In this document: piece after piece, positions 26,754 to 60,272 of the stretch
How positions within the stretch are numbered: position 1 is the stretch's first letter
Layout of the letters: each line of letters begins with the position of its first letter
NCBI GenBank assembly: GCA_963776275.1
Contig: CAVZMI010000034.1
Coordinates: forward strand, 1 to 64,000
Length of the DNA stretch: 64,000 bases
Direction: 5' to 3'
Origin: Ignavibacteriota bacterium
GTDB taxonomy: Bacteria; Bacteroidota; Ignavibacteria; UBA10030; CAVZMI01
Program-made: the position numbers and the translations under genes
Notes under the pieces: generated by a model
Databases searched by the model: none
Told to the model about the DNA's origin: nothing
The model's input: only the letters and a program-made list of their open reading frames with translations

Positions 26754-26779
26754 ATATATGAAGTGACTATATTAAAAGA

Positions 26780-26878
26780 GGTCAAGTTATCCTGCATCAC
26801 ACAGGCGCGTTTGCTGACCGTTGCTTCCTTCCGGAACCTGGCGGGATTGGGCAACGTCCCGTTGCGCAGGACTTGACC
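26780..26878 (-). ncRNA. ffs: Signal recognition particle (4.5S) RNA, copy 1
   Basis: GCCAGGT(T)CCGGAAGGAAGCAAC helix-8 motif inside a hairpin closed by GGTCAAG/CTTGACC. Confidence 0.85.
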
Positions 26879-29567: not shown

Positions 29568-29681
29568 TCAGAGACAACAAATCGTGCACTTTCCTCTTTG
29601 CGACGACTATGTGGAGGAGTTCAAACGTGCCGCGTTATGGATATAAAAACCAATTTACCGGAATAGAAGATCATAAAAAAA

Positions 29682-29784
29682 GAGGTCAAGCGACCCTGCA
29701 TCACACAGGCGCGTTTGCCGACCGTTGCTTCCTTCCTGGACCTGGCGGGATTGGGCAACGTCCCGTTGCGCAGGACTTGACCTC
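29682..29784 (-). ncRNA. ffs: Signal recognition particle (4.5S) RNA, copy 2
   Basis: GCCAGGTCC(A)GGAAGGAAGCAAC; closed by GAGGTCAAG/CTTGACCTC then T run; 7 nt downstream of tRNA-Ala. Confidence 0.85.
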
Positions 29785-29864: not shown

Positions 29865-30029
29865 CCGTTCTTGGGGGCAGTCCCACGTTTCGTGTGGGGC
29901 AGCCCCGTTCTTGGGCAGTCCCACGTTTCGTGTGGGGCAGCCCCCCGTTCTTGGGTAGTCCCACGCTCCGTGTGGGGCAGCCCCCCGTTCTCGGGCAGTC
30001 CCACGTTCCTCGTGGGGCAGCCCCCCGTT
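29858..30029. repeat. Four ~40-bp tandem hairpin repeats plus a partial unit, overlapping the tRNA 5' end
   Basis: Unit cagccccccgttcttgggcagtcccacgtttcgtgtgggg at 29858, 29900, 29938, 29978; partial at 30018. Confidence 0.9.
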
Positions 30030-52034: not shown

Positions 52035-52122
52035 ATCAGCTTATCCGGCATCAAAAAAAAGTCGAAAGCATTCGGGGAAAGGTGATGGTAGTGTAGGAAG
52101 AAGCTTTTAAAAATGCAAGGAG
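52035..52122 (-). repeat. Direct repeat 1 (contains sigma70-type promoter)
   Basis: Near-identical to 58710-58795; minus strand TTGCAT-17 nt-TACACT. Confidence 0.85.
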
Positions 52123-52218
52123 AGAGTAAAAATCCTCAGAGATTTATGATTGCCCGCGTTTAATAGATGCAAAGTCAATTCCGCCGTAACGGAACCGACC
52201 CTGCCGTCGTTGTTCCAT

Positions 52219-52410
52219 TTATCTAATAAATATTAATTTCTTAGTCCGAACCATATCTCCCGCTCGAAGTCTGTAAAAATAAAATCCCGACGCCAGATCT
52301 TGTGAGTTAAACTTATAAGAATATTTCCCGACAGATCGCTCTCCATCAATCAAAACTGCAACTTCTTCACCGATCAAATTGAACAAAGTCAGCCGAACAT
52401 GCGACGTGAT
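52219..52410 (-). pseudogene. Orphan T9SS C-terminal domain fragment
   Basis: HVRLTLFNLIGEEVAVLIDG...ASGFYFYRLRAG...TKKLIFIR without signal peptide or YPNPF part. Confidence 0.7.
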
Positions 52411-52586
52411 ATTGTTTCTTAATATAAGCATTAATATCGAATTTTCTTCTGGGACATTATTACGATTACAATATAAAAAGTACAAATTGAACTTACCTTT
52501 CAAATCACTTAACTTACAAGTAGAATAAGAAAGTCGTATTTAAATAATACAAGGATTCTATGGATTCGGGGATAAACACCATATAA

Positions 52587-53324
52587 ATGAATGATAACAT
52601 GAAAAAAACTAGGACTATTATACACCCTGCGAGAATTATCAAAAAACCAGTAGCTATCCCTCAAATTGTTAGTCTTCGGAAAAAGGCTATTCAAGCCACT
52701 AAAATTCTTCGTTCAATTTACCATTCACCACAGCATAACAATAAACAAGACCCACTCGATGAGATCGTGTTCATTATACTGTCCCAAATGACAACATATC
52801 GGAGTTTCGAACGAGTATTTGACCGGCTAAAGAAAATCGCTCCAACTTGGGAAATGGTTCGTCGGATGCAGCTGAAGCGGCTGAAGAGACTCATCAAGGA
52901 TGCGGGGCTTAGCAACCAGAAGGCACCTCGAATAAGGGCGGTATTGAACAGACTGCGGAATGACTTTGGTAGGGTAACGCTAGAGCCGCTTAGGCAAATG
53001 AAAACCAGTGATGCCGAAGCCTATCTGGTTTCCCTCCCCGGAGTACAAATGAAGAGTGCAAAGTGCGTATTAATGTACTCATTGAAACGCAAAGTTCTCC
53101 CAATTGATACTCATGTACTGAGAGTAGCACGTAGGCTCGGGCTCTTGGATGATTTGGTCATTTCAGAGAAGGCTCATCGGCGACTAGAAGCAATAGTTGA
53201 ACCTTCGTTTCGTTATGCATTCCATGTTAATTCTGTCTCTCACGGTCGATCGATTTGCCTTACGGCCAACCCACGTTGTCCCTTGTGCAGGCTGAAACGA
53301 CTTTGCGATTACTACAAAAAGTGA
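52587..53324 (+). CDS. Endonuclease III-like HhH-GPD DNA glycosylase with Fe-S motif
   Basis: DPLDEIVFIILSQ, LPGVQMKSA, PIDTHV, C-x6-C-x2-C-x5-C. Confidence 0.88.
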   Translation: MNDNMKKTRTIIHPARIIKKPVAIPQIVSLRKKAIQATKILRSIYHSPQHNNKQDPLDEIVFIILSQMTTYRSFERVFDRLKKIAPTWEMVRRMQLKRLKRLIKDAGLSNQKAPRIRAVLNRLRNDFGRVTLEPLRQMKTSDAEAYLVSLPGVQMKSAKCVLMYSLKRKVLPIDTHVLRVARRLGLLDDLVISEKAHRRLEAIVEPSFRYAFHVNSVSHGRSICLTANPRCPLCRLKRLCDYYKK

Positions 53325-53415
53325 TCTAGGGGCATTGCTTGATTTCGACATACGGCGCCTACACCCTGTGGTGAGCAATGTCCGGTTGTGACCTCCGATG
53401 GGTCAGAGGACTAAA

Positions 53416-54015
53416 ATGGCCAATCAGAAAATAGATGATGAAAACGAATTTCTCGAGAGTGAAGACGACTTCAACCGTGAACTCGAAATAGCTATAAGAG
53501 AAGCATACCCAGCCCTTCTCAATAGGGTCAGGACTGCGGGGTTTGCAGGCTATCGCCGACGCTTGGGTTTGGAAAAGGATCTAGCCGATGAGGCAGTCTT
53601 CCATTTTATAAAGCATTGTAAACGCAAACACACGCTCCCTGACAATGCACTTAAATATCTTGTTGCCATTGCCCGCAATATCGCAAAGAAAGAGTACCGC
53701 AACAAGGATAGGATTACCCCTCTATCCCGAAGGAGTGTATCCAGTTTATCTATCGCTGAACTTACAATAACGGAGGACATACAAGAGGTTGAATTGGAAG
53801 GGGACGAGGCTTCATACCAGGAGATACTCATGGAGAAAGTTCGCATCATGATTGAAAAACTGCCCCCCAAGCAGCGGAAAGCGGTTAAACTCCATATAGA
53901 AGATCCAGCAGCAACACAAAAGCAGCAGGCCGAAAGAATGGGTGTAGATGAAGGCGCTTTTCGAAAGGATCTTACAAGGGCAATGGATAGACTTAAACGG
54001 GAACTGAATCCTTGA
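53416..54015 (+). CDS. ECF-like sigma-70 factor
   Basis: Region 2 (DLADEAV...YLVAIARN) and region 4 (LPPKQR...AERMGVDEGAFRKDLTRA); GAGGA RBS. Confidence 0.75.
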   Translation: MANQKIDDENEFLESEDDFNRELEIAIREAYPALLNRVRTAGFAGYRRRLGLEKDLADEAVFHFIKHCKRKHTLPDNALKYLVAIARNIAKKEYRNKDRITPLSRRSVSSLSIAELTITEDIQEVELEGDEASYQEILMEKVRIMIEKLPPKQRKAVKLHIEDPAATQKQQAERMGVDEGAFRKDLTRAMDRLKRELNP

Positions 54016-54080
54016 GTACGACAGAAAATGTCCGGTATGCGACTCCATTGTTATGTGAATAAAAAAAAAGGAGATCAAAA

Positions 54081-55298
54081 ATGGAAGAAACAGCAAAACC
54101 AAATCAGACAAGCCCTTTTGAATCTACCCCACCACCGATTCTTAGCTGGGAAGGGCAAAAGAATTGGCAGAAGCCCCGATTCGAGGCGAGGTACTTCCAC
54201 CGTAAACGGATCGAGGTTTGGAACGGATATGTACGAACTAGGGATGTGAAGGGATGGGTTGACAATGTTCGGATCGAGCTATTCGTTGAAAAATGGAAGC
54301 GTGATAATCATGGATTACCTCCAGGTAACGAAGATATACTTCAATGGATGAAGAACGATCCCTACGATGAGTTTGATCTGAAGAGCCTGGGAGAGAGCAT
54401 TGTGAATAATGGGGTCAGACAACCTATCGTGGTGACAAGTGATGGCGTACTCCTCGATGGAAATCGACGCTACTTCGCTGCATTGATGATGCTGGAGAAG
54501 TCTGAACAAGAACACGCCCCTGATATCTCCGAAATGGTAAGCCAGCTCCCGGCTTATGTCTTGAGTCCCACCTGCGAACCTTCGGAATATGACTCAGTGC
54601 TTGTCGAGGAGAATTTTGTCGATGATTGCCGCCGAGAATGGCCCAATTTCATCAAAGCTAAGAAAGTCTTCGAAGCGTACGGTGAAATGAGGGAACGGGG
54701 CAAATCACGTTCAGAGGCTCTTTCAGATTTGGTCGTTCGTTTTGGCATTTTACGCAGTCGAGCAGAGAGATTCATCAAAATGATGGATCTAATCCAGGAG
54801 TTCCATGACCATCATTCCACTAACGACGAGGAATCCGGCCAGCAGGCCAAGGACGAGTATGAGGTTAGGTGGAGAGCACAAAAGTATTTCGAATACTTCG
54901 ACGAGTTACATAAGACGCGAGTATTGAACACACTCGACAATGATCCGGAGCTGAGAACCAAGGTGTTCGAAAGGCTTTACGATGGCGACTTCTCTAGCTT
55001 CGCTCAAATAAGGAAAGTTCCAGAAATCGCAGCTGACCGACGTGCACGTGATAAGTTCATTTTAGGCTCGGGCAAGCGAGCAGTTGATGAGGCAATCGAA
55101 TGGGTTACAGTCGTGGGCGTCGCAAAGAAAGCACTCAACAACAACGACCGCATAACGAGCTTCTTGCGCTTTTTGTTGAGCTTGACAGCTGAAGAAATGG
55201 AGAACCTAGATCCTGTTGCAATAACTGAACTAAAGAATATTTCGACGAAGGTCGCTGATATGGCCAACGCCGCAAAGGGAGGTGAAAAAGATAATTGA
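54081..55298 (+). CDS. ParB/Srx N-terminal domain protein
   Basis: SIVNNGVRQPIVV...LLDGNRRY motif. Confidence 0.75.
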   Translation: MEETAKPNQTSPFESTPPPILSWEGQKNWQKPRFEARYFHRKRIEVWNGYVRTRDVKGWVDNVRIELFVEKWKRDNHGLPPGNEDILQWMKNDPYDEFDLKSLGESIVNNGVRQPIVVTSDGVLLDGNRRYFAALMMLEKSEQEHAPDISEMVSQLPAYVLSPTCEPSEYDSVLVEENFVDDCRREWPNFIKAKKVFEAYGEMRERGKSRSEALSDLVVRFGILRSRAERFIKMMDLIQEFHDHHSTNDEESGQQAKDEYEVRWRAQKYFEYFDELHKTRVLNTLDNDPELRTKVFERLYDGDFSSFAQIRKVPEIAADRRARDKFILGSGKRAVDEAIEWVTVVGVAKKALNNNDRITSFLRFLLSLTAEEMENLDPVAITELKNISTKVADMANAAKGGEKDN

Positions 55299-57037
55299 AA
55301 GAAGCACTCGGCTTAATAGACATAGATCAAAGCGACATCGCGTTTGTTTGCAAAACGCTGTCGCCATACAATCGCCGTAAATCAATTGAACTAATCAGGA
55401 GGGTAAATCCCTCCGCCAAGATTTCCATTGATGGAACTCTCTTGAGATTCAGTGTCACGGATGCGGTTGCCCTGCGGGCCAGTATCGACAGCTCTGAGTT
55501 CACCTGGTCGGAAAATGCAGCCATGTGGATAACAACCTTCTCTCAGAATTACTCAAACCTAAGTCGCTCCCGTCGACGTCTTTGGGAACTACAGAGACAT
55601 GGCACTGCTAAGAAGTTGCTATCAGATTATTCTAATTTCACGAACCTTGATGAGCATCAGATCATTGCTGTTGCCGCCATGACGGATAAGACCATTACTG
55701 GCATATGCTTGTTCGACGAGCAAGGCCTTGGAAAAACAGTCATGGCTATTCATTCTTTTGATCGCCTCAAGCAGGAGAGTTTAGCGGATGCGGTCTTGAT
55801 ATTTGCACCCAAAAACATGTTGGAGGAGTGGAAGAAGGATTTCGAACGATTCATGGGTGGAAAGTATAGAATCCAGATCCTCTCGGGTGAACGGAGAAAG
55901 AAGTACCAGTCACTTCTTGAGAGCGCTGACGTGTATATTACAAATTACGAGACCGCCTACTCCCTAGAAGACTCCTTGCGTTCCATTCTCAACAGGAAGA
56001 TAGGTAAAGTTGTTCTCGTTGTTGATGAGAGTTTCTACATAAAAAACCGAAATACGAGGCGGGGTATAGCCATTAGACGACTACGAAACCTATGCGAGCG
56101 GTGTTGGGTTCTATGTGGAACGCCTGCACCTAACAACGCGCTCGATGTGGTGCATCAGTTTGAAGTAGCAGATGCTGGTGCTACTTTTGCCGGTGTTGAA
56201 CTTCCAAAAAATGGAAAGAGACTTCAAGAGGTCATCAAGACCACAGTGGAGTCGAGAGGCGTATACTTGCGTCGACTGAAACGCGATGTTCTTCCTGAAT
56301 TGCCCGCGAAGCAGTTCGAGCTAGTTGTCGTACCGATGGAGTCAGAACAGCAGAGTCTCTACGGAAATGCACTCCGATTGCTCGTTAAAGACGTGAAGGC
56401 TTCGGATGAGATAATCTTCAATAAACAATATGCATCATTCTTGTCACGGAAGATGAAGCTACTTCAAATCTGCAGCCATCCGGGGCAAATCGTCGATCAG
56501 TACCAAGGCTTACCAGCAAAGATGGTGGCATTGGATGGTCTACTGCGTCACCTTATAGACGAAAACGGCGAAAAGGTCGTTCTGTGGTCCTACTTTCGAT
56601 ACACAATTGATCAATTGATCCGGAGATACGACCTATATAAACCGGTAAAACTCGATGGTAGTGTACAAGACACTACAAAACGGTCTCAAGCAATACGCAG
56701 CTTTCAAGAAGATAGTGAAACAATGCTCTTTGTCGGTAACCCTGCTGCTGGTGGAACTGGTATCACTTTGACACGATCCTGCACCATGATCTATGAATCT
56801 TTCTCACCACAGACAGCACATTACCTCCAAAGTCTCGACAGGATACATAGAAGAGGCCAAACGCGTGATGTGTATTACTATGTTTTGCTATGTAAAGGCT
56901 CGATCGAAGAAGATGAGTACGAGAGATTATTGAGAAAAGAAATTCAATCAGCCGAGTTATTCAGTGACCCGTTGCCAGAAGCGACACCGAGAGAAGTGTT
57001 CCTTGAGGAACTGATCGGTGCTTTGAAGAAACTCTAG
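55295..57037 (+). CDS. SNF2-family helicase/ATPase
   Basis: DEQGLGKT, VVDESF, CGTP, RRLKRDVLPELP, QSLDRIHRRGQ. Confidence 0.9.
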   Translation: MKEALGLIDIDQSDIAFVCKTLSPYNRRKSIELIRRVNPSAKISIDGTLLRFSVTDAVALRASIDSSEFTWSENAAMWITTFSQNYSNLSRSRRRLWELQRHGTAKKLLSDYSNFTNLDEHQIIAVAAMTDKTITGICLFDEQGLGKTVMAIHSFDRLKQESLADAVLIFAPKNMLEEWKKDFERFMGGKYRIQILSGERRKKYQSLLESADVYITNYETAYSLEDSLRSILNRKIGKVVLVVDESFYIKNRNTRRGIAIRRLRNLCERCWVLCGTPAPNNALDVVHQFEVADAGATFAGVELPKNGKRLQEVIKTTVESRGVYLRRLKRDVLPELPAKQFELVVVPMESEQQSLYGNALRLLVKDVKASDEIIFNKQYASFLSRKMKLLQICSHPGQIVDQYQGLPAKMVALDGLLRHLIDENGEKVVLWSYFRYTIDQLIRRYDLYKPVKLDGSVQDTTKRSQAIRSFQEDSETMLFVGNPAAGGTGITLTRSCTMIYESFSPQTAHYLQSLDRIHRRGQTRDVYYYVLLCKGSIEEDEYERLLRKEIQSAELFSDPLPEATPREVFLEELIGALKKL

Positions 57038-57054
57038 CTTTATGATATCGATAA

Positions 57055-58364
57055 CTATTTTATTTCCCGGCTCTTGTCTAGAATGAGGATATGTTTAGAA
57101 ATGATATCGCGGCGATGGCCGTTGTTACCCAACCAATTACGCGCTTCCTTCGGATTTTTATTGCGCCGCATCCTTGCCGGGTTTAACATTGTATGAGGTC
57201 GATCTGAGAGACGATCCAATAGAGTCAGGTTATGACAAACGATAACCCCTCGTAGTTTATGAGTTTTCGCGCTCTGCATGGCTTTTTTTATTGTTTTTCC
57301 AATTACCTCTCCTAACCCCACCGGTACAGCATTGCCAATTTGTTTGTATTGTTCAGAAATGCCACCCGCAAATCGCCAGTTATCTGGGAATTGTTGGATG
57401 CGAGCATATTCCCTTACACTCAGTGGTCGAAGTTTTGTGGGGTGGCACAACAAGGTTGCTTTGTAGGTGGGATGTGTCGTTAGTGATGGTGCTGGTCTCT
57501 TCCATGAAAGTCTTCTGAAGAAACCACTCCTCCCCCCCACGAGTCGTATGCTTTGCCGAGTGCCTCCTCTTGTACACCAGGTTTTAAGTCTCTCCAGTTG
57601 CCACCTTCGGGTATGTGCTTTAAGTACTTCTTATATGTCGGTGGCAATGGAGTATATTTTTGACTCTTTTCCCTCAACCCCTTAAGGGCTTCGTGCAACC
57701 CGAACCAAGGAAGGCGCCCCTTTTTTCTACTTTTAGAATGAGAAGGTTTTATGAACCGCAAATCTTCTCCATCTCGTGAACCAATAAATACAACGCGTTG
57801 TCTTGACTGAGGTACGCCATAGTCAGCTGCATCAAGTAAGTCAAAAACTATATAGTAACCAGTCTTCTTTAGTTCTCTAAGAATTAATGCAAAAGCTGAT
57901 CCTAATTCCTCCTCGATCGTCAGTGGCGGAAACCCTGGTCATCGTCTCTTAAGTTGGCGATGCTTAATGGCAGCGGAAAGAAGTCCTTTTACATTCTCCA
58001 TTACAAAGAACCGTGGTTTTGCTTCATTAATAACTCTTAAAAATTCTTTGAACATTTTCCCACGTGGATCGCCAACTGATCCTCTTTGTCCTGCTGTACT
58101 GAATGCCTGACAAGATGGTCCTGCAGCTACAATAGCAATATCACCAATTCCAAGACCCGCTGCCATCAAAAGTTCTTTTGTAGATACATCCTCTATTTTA
58201 TTTTCAAAAAGTTTGATGTCTGGTCGGTTAATGCGGATTGTCTCCGCTGCATGTTTGTTACACTCAACCGCAACACGAACATTAAAACCAGCCTTCTCAA
58301 GACCAATATCAAGCCCTAATGCTCCTGAGAATATAGATATTATAGATTTGTTTCTCTTGCTCAT
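57055..58364 (-). pseudogene. DNA (cytosine-5) methyltransferase with in-frame TGA (57939-57941) and G-tract frameshift (~57535)
   Basis: FSGALG, GPSCQAFS, MENVKG, DYGVPQSRQR, RPLSVREYARIQQFPD, QIGNAVP. Confidence 0.88.
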
Positions 58365-58709
58365 GTAGGAATCTTAAAGAAATATATGTTCATCTTGTAG
58401 CTTCATCAAGACGGTTTATTAAGAGTGCGTTTTCTGTTGTAGATAACTGAATATAATTAAAGTACGAGAGTGTACATTTACTTTATAGTCCCTTCGCATC
58501 CCTGAGCTTCCCATCAGCATTGTCTGTTTCAAATCCTGCATCACTTTCTCAATCGTGTAAGATGAGTGCAATACGCTTACATAATTACATGCCTCGGTTT
58601 GATGTCCCTAGTTCTAAAAAATATATCTGTTTTTTGCTGTGAAAGCAAGCCTATCGACGCCTCCTACAATTTTGAAAGATTACGTCCATTCCGGTTGCCT
58701 TGCTTCCAT

Positions 58710-58795
58710 ATCAGCTTATCCGGCATTAAAAAAAGTCGGAAGTATTCGGAAAAGGCGAAGGTAGTGTAGGAAGAAGCTTTTAAAAATGCAAGGAG
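58710..58795 (-). repeat. Direct repeat 2 (contains sigma70-type promoter)
   Basis: Near-identical to 52035-52122, last 36 bp identical. Confidence 0.85.
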
Positions 58796-58868: not shown

Positions 58869-60272
58869 TCAAAAATAGGGCCGCATCCGGTATTTCATTC
58901 CAAGCGTTTTCTCGATGAACTCTTTTGCTTTCTCCTGATCCACTTCATCCATACCTACGATGCTCATAACAACCTCGGGGAGGTATTTCTGGCATTCCCT
59001 GGCGAACTCGAGTATTGCGGTATAGAAACGGGGACCGTCGATACGCATCAGGCGGCCGTACTGTTCGGGATCCGTGGAATTCAGGCTTATCGATACACTA
59101 TCGATCAATCCCACAAGTTCCGGAACTATATTCCGTTTATTGATAACGCTGCCGTGTCCATCGGTGTTGAGGCGGACTTTTCCACCGTGCTCTTTGACCC
59201 ATCGTGCAATATCTTTCAGCTCATCGAGGCGAATCGTCGGCTCACCATACCCGCAAAAGACAATCTCATCGTATTTTGTCGGATCGCCGATTTGGTCGAT
59301 GACTTCCTGTGCGGTCGGTTCCTCAGTGATGCGAAGATTATGTCCTTTTATGACTGCCTCGCCTTTGCGATCGCAGAAAACACAATCAGCATTGCAGCGG
59401 ATCGTCAGGTTAATGTATAGAGCATTCTTGAGCTCGTACACGATCCGTGGCGGATCGAGGCTCCCGATGCCGAATAACTTTTTTGCGTTATACGACGTTG
59501 TCCGCTCTACATCTTTTATCGTTGCGTGCAATATTTCAGCGATTTTTTCTGCAACAATTTTCACGTTTGCCGGTTCGTTCCGCCGGCCGCGGAAAGGGAC
59601 GGGAGTAAGATACGGGGCGTCGGTTTCAACCATTATATAATCATAACTGATCTTTTTCAGCACATCGACGGTACTGGAATTTCTAAACGTTACAATTCCC
59701 GGAAACGAAATCAGAAAACCCATCTCAATGAGCTTCCAGGCTGTTTCTGCATCCCCTGCATAACAATGGAACACTCCCTTATGAATCGGGACCTTACCGT
59801 CCGATCCCGTCGTTCCACTCCGCCATTTCGGTTCCTGAGCGATCGTTTCCTCGACGATACGGATGGCATTATTAAGTGAATCGCGAGTGTGAATCACCAC
59901 CGGGAGATTTCTCCGGACAGCAATACGAAGCTGCTCGCGGAACACATCAACCTGAGTCTCACGGGGAGAAAAGTCGTAATAGTAATCGAGTCCGATCTCG
60001 CCGATAGCGACCACCTTCGGGTGCTTGCTTATTTGTTCGATTTCTTTGAGTGATTCCGTTGTGGCCTTGCCTGCATCATGGGGATGGAAACCGACACAGG
60101 CATAGATCATGTCGTATCGTTCTGCCAGATCGATAACGGTTCGGCTGGTTGCATAGTCAACTGCCGGCACAACAATATATTCAATACCGGCTTCGCGTGC
60201 ACGAGCGATAACTTCATCGATATCACCCTGGAATTCGGGAGAATAAAGGTGAGCATGTGTATCTATAAGCAT
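58869..60272 (-). CDS. TatD-family nuclease fused to a radical SAM domain
   Basis: DTHAH, GEIGLDY, ETDAPY, then YINLTIRCNADCVFC and FCGYGEP. Confidence 0.9.
   Translation of the reverse strand: MLIDTHAHLYSPEFQGDIDEVIARAREAGIEYIVVPAVDYATSRTVIDLAERYDMIYACVGFHPHDAGKATTESLKEIEQISKHPKVVAIGEIGLDYYYDFSPRETQVDVFREQLRIAVRRNLPVVIHTRDSLNNAIRIVEETIAQEPKWRSGTTGSDGKVPIHKGVFHCYAGDAETAWKLIEMGFLISFPGIVTFRNSSTVDVLKKISYDYIMVETDAPYLTPVPFRGRRNEPANVKIVAEKIAEILHATIKDVERTTSYNAKKLFGIGSLDPPRIVYELKNALYINLTIRCNADCVFCDRKGEAVIKGHNLRITEEPTAQEVIDQIGDPTKYDEIVFCGYGEPTIRLDELKDIARWVKEHGGKVRLNTDGHGSVINKRNIVPELVGLIDSVSISLNSTDPEQYGRLMRIDGPRFYTAILEFARECQKYLPEVVMSIVGMDEVDQEKAKEFIEKTLGMKYRMRPYF

Follow-up and report, generated by a model that had tools for sequence, protein, structure and literature searches.

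A widespread cassette that joins a C5 cytosine methyltransferase to an apparently dedicated sigma factor, a ParB-like protein and an SNF2 motor, with probably exchangeable repair partners

We analysed a 64,000-nucleotide stretch of contig CAVZMI010000034.1 from an Ignavibacteriota bacterium (the window; coordinates without a prefix are positions in it), and in it a five-gene cassette encoding a HhH-GPD glycosylase, an extracytoplasmic function (ECF)-type sigma factor, a ParB-like protein, an SNF2-family ATPase and a C5 cytosine methyltransferase (Table 1). The first four genes converge on the methyltransferase gene, parB and snf2 overlapping by 4 nucleotides (nt; 55295-55298), and the cassette is bracketed by direct repeats of 88 nt, identical in 80 of 88 columns, which together with it sit between tatD and glycoside-hydrolase genes; eight open reading frames (ORFs) were counted between the repeats in a domain and PADLOC scan, and no integrase is among them. 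This layout had been proposed, along with a candidate undescribed system, in a preliminary description made from the sequence alone, and ORF, domain and repeat calls agree on it. We propose that the locus belongs to a widespread cassette that matches no named system and is apparently undescribed.

Table 1. Features of the cassette and its borders in the window (52035-58795)
Feature	Position	Strand	Basis or remark
Left direct repeat	52035..52122	.	repeat search
Type IX secretion system (T9SS) C-terminal sorting-domain remnant	52219..52503	-	domain match; outside the conserved cassette
HhH-GPD [4Fe-4S] glycosylase	52587..53324	+	domain, PDB search, comparative
Compact bipartite motif, copy 1, TGTCCG-N5-GACCTC	53379..53395	+	upstream of the sigma gene
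ECF-type sigma factor, regions 2 and 4	53398..54015	+	start probably at 53416, behind a ribosome-binding site
Compact bipartite motif, copy 2, TGTCCG-N6-GACTCC	54029..54046	+	upstream of parB
ParB-like protein	54081..55298	+	invariant DGNRR in the ParB/Srx NTP-binding domain, helix-turn-helix, helical C-terminal part
SNF2-family ATPase	55295..57037	+	helicase motifs intact
C5 cytosine methyltransferase, SinI-family-like, with C-terminal extension	57055..58364	-	DNA_methylase domain match; in three pieces: TGA at 57939-57941, frameshift at a G7 run, 57532-57538
Right direct repeat	58710..58795	.	repeat search

Relatives were collected in a single scan of GTDB with two peptide patterns taken from an alignment of 43 ParB sequences, which gave 90 candidate stretches and from these 49 loci; the sample is thus conditional on ParB and not exhaustive, and gene presence was scored with profiles built from the same loci. 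The sigma gene was found in 47 of the 49, and SNF2 and a C5 methylase in 46 each, every missing sigma or methylase gene falling at a contig edge, so that the genes co-occur well beyond this genome, a check that the preliminary description had named. The hosts span Pseudomonadota, Actinomycetota, Acidobacteriota, Chloroflexota, Nitrospirota, Planctomycetota, Bacteroidota and Bacillota, and the ParB family numbers 120 representatives at E<1e-30 and 400 at E<1e-3. Close ParB relatives (53-65% identity) number roughly 50, for the most part on metagenome contigs. Among the carriers are cultured strains (Nitrospirillum iridis DSM 22198, Roseateles asaccharophilus BE316 and Herbaspirillum frisingense GSF30), which permit direct experiments. 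Of the 49 loci, only L001 shares the ParB subclade of the window copy, and its contig ends within SNF2; when close relatives were sought for the window sigma, that protein alone came back. L014, L019 and L046 have HNH or Mrr genes nested within them. Two departures in gene arrangement were also seen: in L019 (4627-7824) genes for a second, divergent ParB-like protein, a prephenate-dehydratase-like protein and an Mrr-like nuclease lie between methylase and glycosylase, and in L043 (8809-9552) the sigma gene is inverted relative to parB.

The target of the methylase was approached by comparison. In two of the three plasmid records that we opened among the best matches of a full-length family methylase, a SinI-family endonuclease gene adjoins the matching gene (the neighbour in the third is hypothetical), and the family methylase shares 47-48% identity with the two best plasmid matches and resembles them in its target-recognition region. 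SinI reads GGWCC, which is most likely the mark of the family methylase as well. Sequence composition points the same way. Against a null of synonymous-codon shuffles over 222 gene segments, taken from 44 loci that include the window and leave out six near-duplicates, GGWCC ranked as the most depleted of 512 5-mers in cassette genes, with 442 observed versus 630 expected (0.70), and fell below expectation in 39 of the 44 loci; in flanking ORFs its ratio was 0.84, rank 8 among 32 palindromes. That the methylase puts 5-methylcytosine (5mC) into GGWCC is thus well supported by comparative sequence evidence, the inner C being assumed from the specificity of SinI. Counting against this, the expected C-to-T deamination products are only slightly above background (GGATC 1.21 versus 1.11, GGTTC 1.14 versus 1.10) and are not elevated in loci without repair genes; we had considered an excess of these products as decisive evidence and rejected it, since it shrank once set against controls.

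The methylase further carries a C-terminal extension of ~60-70 residues beyond SinI-family methylases. The extension is absent from the methylase in all three loci that have no SNF2, and also in L046 and L048, and its loss alongside SNF2 hints at an interaction between methylase and motor. In 11 of the 49 loci (L005, L012, L014, L017, L022, L024-L027, L029 and L030) a small gene just 5' of the methylase encodes what appears by eye to be a ribbon-helix-helix protein, a possible methylase regulator.

In the window itself the methylase gene is broken twice. The TGA replaces a codon that is Gly in all 108 matched homologues (of 120) and lies within a would-be GGACC site. Six more window genes are broken, those for a site-2 protease, uvrA, htrA, transketolase and two hydrolase-like proteins, with frameshifts near 2284, 15015, 41450, 42805, 49300 and 51590. 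Among the eight breaks, two fall clearly at GGACC (uvrA and the methylase stop), three would fit a damaged GGWCC, and the last three would not; the chance of at least two GGACC coincidences, computed for 9 breaks, is ~0.004. Among the known causes of nanopore errors is methylation (PMC9997738; here and below, papers cited by identifier are cited for those parts of their text that were available). Since uvrA and transketolase are broken too, the methylase breaks are probably assembly errors, and the DNA that was sequenced may have carried methylated GGWCC. The competing explanation, confined to this genome, is that the copy is a relic in decay, whose methylase is dead and whose nuclease has been lost. 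It would fit the two breaks, the lack of a nuclease gene, the absence of an integrase between the repeats and the failure to find an intact methylase of the same organism (no intact copy exceeds 75% identity); but it has to contend with the six other broken genes, with a stop that sits at a conserved Gly in a would-be GGACC site and a second break in a homopolymer run, and with the remaining four cassette genes, which keep all catalytic motifs. We regard decay as improbable.

The glycosylase gave a HhH-GPD match (E 7e-12) and retains K156, D174 and the Fe-S cysteines C224, C231, C234 and C240; against the PDB its best match was D. radiodurans EndoIII-1 (E 5e-36), followed by ROS1 (2e-18), E. 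coli Nth (2e-16) and Mig (1e-12). The preliminary description had listed it as one of five components, one that either replaces Vsr or attacks modified DNA. It is not a core member, being an accessory found in 24 of the 49 loci (partial or decayed in three), while Vsr occurs in 10 and a Tyr-type Mig in 3. These repair genes alternate: glycosylase and Vsr or Mig meet in only one of the 24 glycosylase loci (L044, there with a Vsr fragment), compared with Vsr or Mig in 12 of the 25 loci without glycosylase (Fisher p 0.0008 for 49 loci, 0.0014 for the 41 that remain when edges and near-duplicates are dropped), and on a quick ParB tree the repair-gene label switches about 10 times, at least 6 of them forced. 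In the 21 loci where glycosylase and methylase are both full length, the two are fused in 7 and lie within 65 nt of each other in 13 more.

The repair genes also track the loss of GGWCC. Using sigma, parB and snf2 only, in 34 loci with a typical methylase, the observed/expected ratio was 0.44 in nine loci with no repair gene, 0.69 in 18 with glycosylase and 1.01 in seven with Vsr (permutation p versus no repair gene 0.003 for glycosylase and 0.0004 for Vsr); the glycosylase comparison without nine related loci gave 0.73 (p 0.008). The flanks follow the same slope, though a shallower one (0.73, 0.88 and 0.99, respectively), and five control motifs showed no glycosylase effect, CCWGG giving a weak Vsr effect (p 0.03). 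A gradient rising from no repair gene through glycosylase to Vsr is what partial repair of T:G mismatches predicts. Among about seven sister comparisons made by eye, two (L013/L029 and L041/L043) run opposite to it. Taken together, the comparative sequence evidence suggests that the glycosylase is probably an exchangeable accessory for T:G repair that alternates with Vsr or Mig; Mig acts as the repair partner of a C5 methylase (PMC3260424), and T:G activity is not among the activities reported for the EndoIII-1-like branch in the available text of PMC10523315. If so, it would be a third, EndoIII-1-like answer to 5mC deamination beside Vsr and Mig, and would give that branch a candidate substrate.

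An alternative places the glycosylase at the centre of the system, as a DEMETER/ROS1-like 5mC eraser or a modification-dependent weapon. It can point to ROS1, which matches better than E. coli Nth and Mig do in the search of the PDB, to the residue at the HhH position, which is a lysine (K156) in the window protein and Tyr in the Mig-type proteins of L016, L032 and L036, and to the fact that removal of 5mC would likewise lower GGWCC loss. An eraser would protect sites too, yet would hardly alternate with Vsr; the gene is absent from 25 loci, 12 of which have Vsr or Mig instead, it is fused to the methylase in 7, its best match is EndoIII-1, and the ROS1 alignment is confined to residues 86-243. 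DEMETER and ROS1 are large multidomain proteins with an inserted glycosylase domain plus C-terminal domains, an architecture that a 245-residue protein does not fit. We consider an eraser or weapon very unlikely, and of the two roles offered before, replacement of Vsr is the one that is well supported, by alternation, fusion and the GGWCC gradient. As for the HhH position itself, Y126 of Mig reportedly has a role there (PMC9945173). The Mig-type glycosylases of the family (L016:5544-6437, L032:11321-12235 and L036:11314-12213) carry a C-terminal XRE helix-turn-helix and occur in the loci without SNF2. The window glycosylase also matches the PADLOC 'REase_II' model PDLC03398 over 32-218 of 221, a length and a range shared with the Mig structure 1kea; this model, labelled a type II nicking endonuclease, thus appears to be Mig, and tools could miscall a glycosylase-methylase pair as type II restriction-modification (RM).

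The sigma factor matched TIGR02937 with 59.2 bits (cut-off 42.9); it is 205 residues long and ends after region 4, and the family profile matches SigH, SigE and RpoE. A de novo two-box search of 43 sigma-upstream regions gave its best score at a spacer of 7-8 nt (340, versus ~265 in shuffles), spacers of 16-19 scoring ~300, to which box 1 and a purine-rich patch contribute. The resulting family consensus, TGTNAC-N7/8-G(A/T)CTA, has 48 matches in the 11.6 kb of sigma-upstream DNA that served as training set, versus 0.26 per kb elsewhere. Beyond the training set, all 9 non-duplicate short-ParB loci have another copy ahead of parB. In 38 of the 49 loci ParB is ~510 residues long, with an extra N-terminal helical segment, and the parB gene of such loci usually touches or overlaps that of sigma, without a separate copy of the motif. 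Several loci (L014, L016, L035, L037, L042 and L046) have 2-4 tandem copies upstream of sigma. In the window the variant TGTCCG-N5/6-GACYYC, a pattern written after both copies had been seen, has exactly two matches, before sigma and before parB, and none in 100 shuffles; its score on the family matrix is poor, and it is uncertain in register.

Covariation between sigma residues and box bases was assessed over 195 sigma alignment columns in the 34 loci whose site was judged clear. For the first base of box 2, sigma2 residues N94 and K98 ranked first and second among the 195 columns, and for the fourth base of box 1, sigma4 residue K190 ranked third, in agreement in 32 of 34 loci. We take N94, K98 and K190 to correspond to RpoE Asn80, Asn84 and Ser172, in a numbering checked against SigH and SigE alignments only. 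These RpoE residues are named as -11, -12/-13 and -34 contacts (PMC7776599). The top covarying columns for the remaining boxes are no known contacts, and tempering the signal further, the loci offer only ~3 informative independent pairs, all in the same direction (p 0.25). These observations support recognition of TGTNAC-N7/8-G(A/T)CTA by the cassette sigma, which appears dedicated to the cassette, as the preliminary description had proposed: the motif stands before sigma and parB, and its bases track contact residues. A compact promoter would follow, and, if confirmed, it would break the 16-18 nt rule for ECF sigmas, whose promoters are modelled with such spacers (PMC7776599). The boxes are ECF-like and the spacer is about one helical turn short; since the survey in that paper scanned spacers of 15-18 nt only, it could not have seen a motif of 7-8 nt. 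A literature search with subscription papers outside its coverage found no paper on a 7-8 nt ECF spacer, and the main text and part of the supplement of the ECF reclassification paper (PMC7826278) hold no text on SNF2, ParB or spacers.

It is possible, if rather doubtful, that this ECF sigma family reads both boxes across 7-8 nt in a geometry that the standard holoenzyme cannot adopt, either binding DNA without core polymerase or needing a ParB clamp and SNF2 motor to fire the promoter, as sigma-54 needs an ATPase. If true, the cassette, with its C5 methylase and exchangeable repair enzyme, would be a methylation-gated switch dependent on nucleoside triphosphate (NTP), immune or epigenetic in purpose, for which there is no earlier description.

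The ParB-like protein is recognised weakly by sequence (ParB_N, E 0.002) and clearly by its structure model (pLDDT 89), which over both the NTP domain and the helix-turn-helix has matches in ParB, Spo0J, Noc and KorB (Foldseek E 2.5e-4 versus Myxococcus ParB; Z 8.7, root-mean-square deviation 4.6 and 217 aligned residues versus 5k5d). A parA gene was found neither in the window cassette nor in the gene families that recur across the 49 loci. The nucleotide preference of ParB-fold proteins is not predictable from sequence, and one of them, DndB, is described as an ATP-dependent repressor (10.1101/2025.10.10.680097). The SNF2 protein has 580 residues (E 1.5e-29). A predicted complex of ParB and sigma scored 0.16 against a mark of 0.32, and was used neither way.

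A nuclease-like gene follows SNF2 in many relatives. This gene, F8, has ~140 codons and lies 3' of SNF2 in 25 of the 49 loci, and its products keep P-D and G-(D/E)-A-K in all 22 aligned sequences. Of its atlas feature hits, the ten best that carry a family assignment all belong to a single family or clan, those shown being of PD-(D/E)XK type; its profile aligns on the SdaI catalytic motif as a weak match (E 0.15). Fold searches with its model pointed to no clear family, with a best Foldseek E of 0.01, Holliday-junction resolvases at E 0.02 and a best Z of 7.3 for unrelated methyltransferases, and Pfam and PADLOC yielded nothing useful. On sequence grounds we describe F8 as a putative small PD-(D/E)XK nuclease-like subunit of the system. 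That the locus has no restriction nuclease, as stated at the outset of this work, is thus true of the window copy and probably does not extend to the system.

Our preferred reading, to which we give an even chance, is that this is a mobile RM-like cassette in which the type II endonuclease has been replaced by an NTP-driven, sigma-controlled arm. The methylase would deposit 5mC in GGWCC; the glycosylase, a swap-in for Vsr or Mig with strong comparative support, would remove T from the T:G mismatches left by 5mC deamination; and sigma would read the compact sites before its own gene and parB-snf2, creating a positive-feedback switch by which the effector arm is expressed separately from the methylase, a role that C proteins have in ordinary systems. 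In the last and weakest step, ParB would load as a nucleotide-gated clamp and SNF2 translocate, the two acting on DNA without the GGWCC mark and cutting it through the PD-(D/E)XK subunit where one is present; the window copy, having no F8, would rely on ParB and SNF2 alone or be attenuated. From its genomic context the cassette probably defends against foreign DNA, a nuclease, toxin-antitoxin or mobility domain being found near 16 of 42 loci (116 nearest long ORFs scanned), besides the nucleases nested within three loci.

Several observations pull the other way. No GGWCC-reading domain is recognisable in any subunit; Vsr-bearing loci show no avoidance of GGWCC, which makes its depletion a matter of mutation rather than of restriction pressure; and the neighbour count has no background control. 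F8 is absent from 24 of the 49 loci (a few at contig edges), and the F8 and Vsr profiles gave nothing significant in the whole window. The three loci without SNF2, all Chloroflexota, have the order methylase-sigma-parB-Mig, and five loci have a methylase with a different recognition region, which in L046 adjoins its own EcoO109I-like endonuclease. No relatives of ParB were found in plasmid and phage collections. A search of plasmids with SNF2 gave only matches of 26-31% identity among the 15 plasmid records listed.

Some of these points would suit a methylation-linked transcription switch, in which ParB and SNF2 act on RNA polymerase or on the compact promoter and methylation sets or remembers the state. 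ParB would then act as KorB or DndB do, and SNF2 as does RapA, an SNF2 protein that works on RNA polymerase. A short spacer, ill-suited to the 16-18 nt of ECF holoenzymes (PMC7776599), would make the promoter depend on ParB and SNF2; the invariant trio is only methylase, sigma and ParB, the nuclease being optional; ParB has the full NTPase and helix-turn-helix layout of KorB and Spo0J, and DndB offers the precedent of a repressor (10.1101/2025.10.10.680097); and the motif is repeated 2-4 times in several loci. Yet the motif is confined within 10 kb to the cassette's own genes (against the background given above), and the patchy distribution and the defence and mobility neighbours fit such a switch poorly. 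A methylation switch within the promoter was considered separately and rejected, since the boxes hold no conserved GGWCC; there would be no direct methyl switch at the promoter. We hold the transcription switch to be a less probable account than an RM-like cassette, though a serious one.

Nuclease-free copies such as that of the window could also be explained by an abortive-infection (Abi) or addiction module, in which toxic ParB and SNF2 (through nucleotide depletion, nicking or a roadblock) are unleashed when methylation is lost or blocked. PD-lambda-5 is methyltransferase-containing and has been called such a compact RM+Abi system (PMC9519451), and in conflict systems ParB/Srx domains have the role of NTPases or of non-specific nucleases (PMC5512222, PMC10853773). 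The PD-Lambda-5_A model matches 4 of 43 family members, weakly (best E 2e-4), and does not match the window protein. Moreover, in L036 (an insertion sequence) and L015 the methylase is disrupted while sigma and parB look intact, which obligate addiction should not tolerate unless sigma is silent or the breaks are errors. This module, too, seems unlikely to us, and the RM-like cassette remains our preferred account.

Around the cassette, we noted a few features of the window that touch none of the above. On the minus strand of the left repeat, a promoter-like stretch seen by eye (TTGCAT-17-TACACT) lies ahead of the neighbouring glycoside-hydrolase genes and is absent from the promoter scan list; a scan for sigma-70 promoters and terminators performed at chance (13 versus 11.9 and 6 versus 5.9), an Rfam search at the repeats found nothing, and BLAST of the T9SS remnant against the 49 loci gave no match. 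Adjoining the right repeat is a gene for a TatD DNase fused to a radical SAM domain (58869-60272, minus strand). Elsewhere, the small signal recognition particle RNA is present in two copies (26777-26878 and 29681-29782, minus strand), 93% identical and 2.9 kb apart, with a T9SS-tail gene between them, and four tandem repeats of 38-40 nt adjoin a tRNA-Ala (29865-30029).

Among known systems, the SinI-family RM systems are closest in their methylase, sharing a related C5 enzyme, a similar recognition region and a likely GGWCC target; the cassette differs in having no SinI-family endonuclease (no ORF is left for one between the repeats) and in adding sigma, ParB and SNF2. Helicases are combined with C5 methylases in DISARM class II, Hma, Druantia type II and CglI/NgoAVII, all of which, like the cassette, join a C5 methylase to a superfamily-2 ATPase; none of them is known to include an ECF sigma or a ParB clamp. 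DISARM class II includes the DrmA helicase, DrmB (DUF1998), DrmC (PLD) and DrmE, and DrmA, DrmB, DrmC and DrmE were unmatched both among the eight ORFs between the repeats and among the recurring families of the 49 loci. The HmaA model (~1200 residues) covers only residues 428-548 of SNF2, and no gene for the HmaC ATPase was found, so that the locus is neither DISARM nor Hma, in line with the preliminary description. The cassette likewise has no DruE, DruF or DruG, the only Druantia type II match being DruM2. The methylase matches to DrmMII (PDLC02650, E 7.6e-43 with the first fragment) and DruM2 are generic to C5 methylases, and the models of ZorD, DpdE, DrmD and HmaA are much longer than the cassette SNF2, which matches their motor core only. 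The PADLOC-DB of 2023 has no model that covers sigma or ParB, and what it matches in SNF2 and the methylase is generic only; a literature search, again with subscription papers outside its coverage, found no description of such a gene set; nor do the available parts of the Dnd, BREX, polyvalent-protein, ParB-fold and PD-lambda-5 papers describe it. PD-lambda-5 consists of two genes, without sigma, SNF2 or a repair gene.

The glycosylase stands beside or fused to its methylase as Vsr and Mig.MthI do, and alternates with both, but differs from Mig.MthI by Lys at the HhH position and by its EndoIII-1-like branch. The ParB-like protein shares with ParB/Spo0J, KorB and DndB a ParB/Srx NTP pocket followed by a helix-turn-helix, and differs from the ParB of ParABS in lacking ParA and in an invariant C-terminal motif of its own, forming a distinct family. 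Like ECF sigmas in general, the cassette sigma consists of regions 2 and 4 only, its motif departing from their 16-18 nt spacer, and ECF41, whose promoter is TGTCACA-n16-CGTC before its own sigma operon (PMC3426412), has nearly the same half-sites in the same position, with a spacer of 16 +/- 1 rather than 7-8 nt and with a long C-terminal extension and a COE neighbour that the cassette does not have. The cassette is thus akin to the helicase-plus-methylase defence systems, yet stands outside all named ones, and defines an unnamed, phylum-spanning methylation system.

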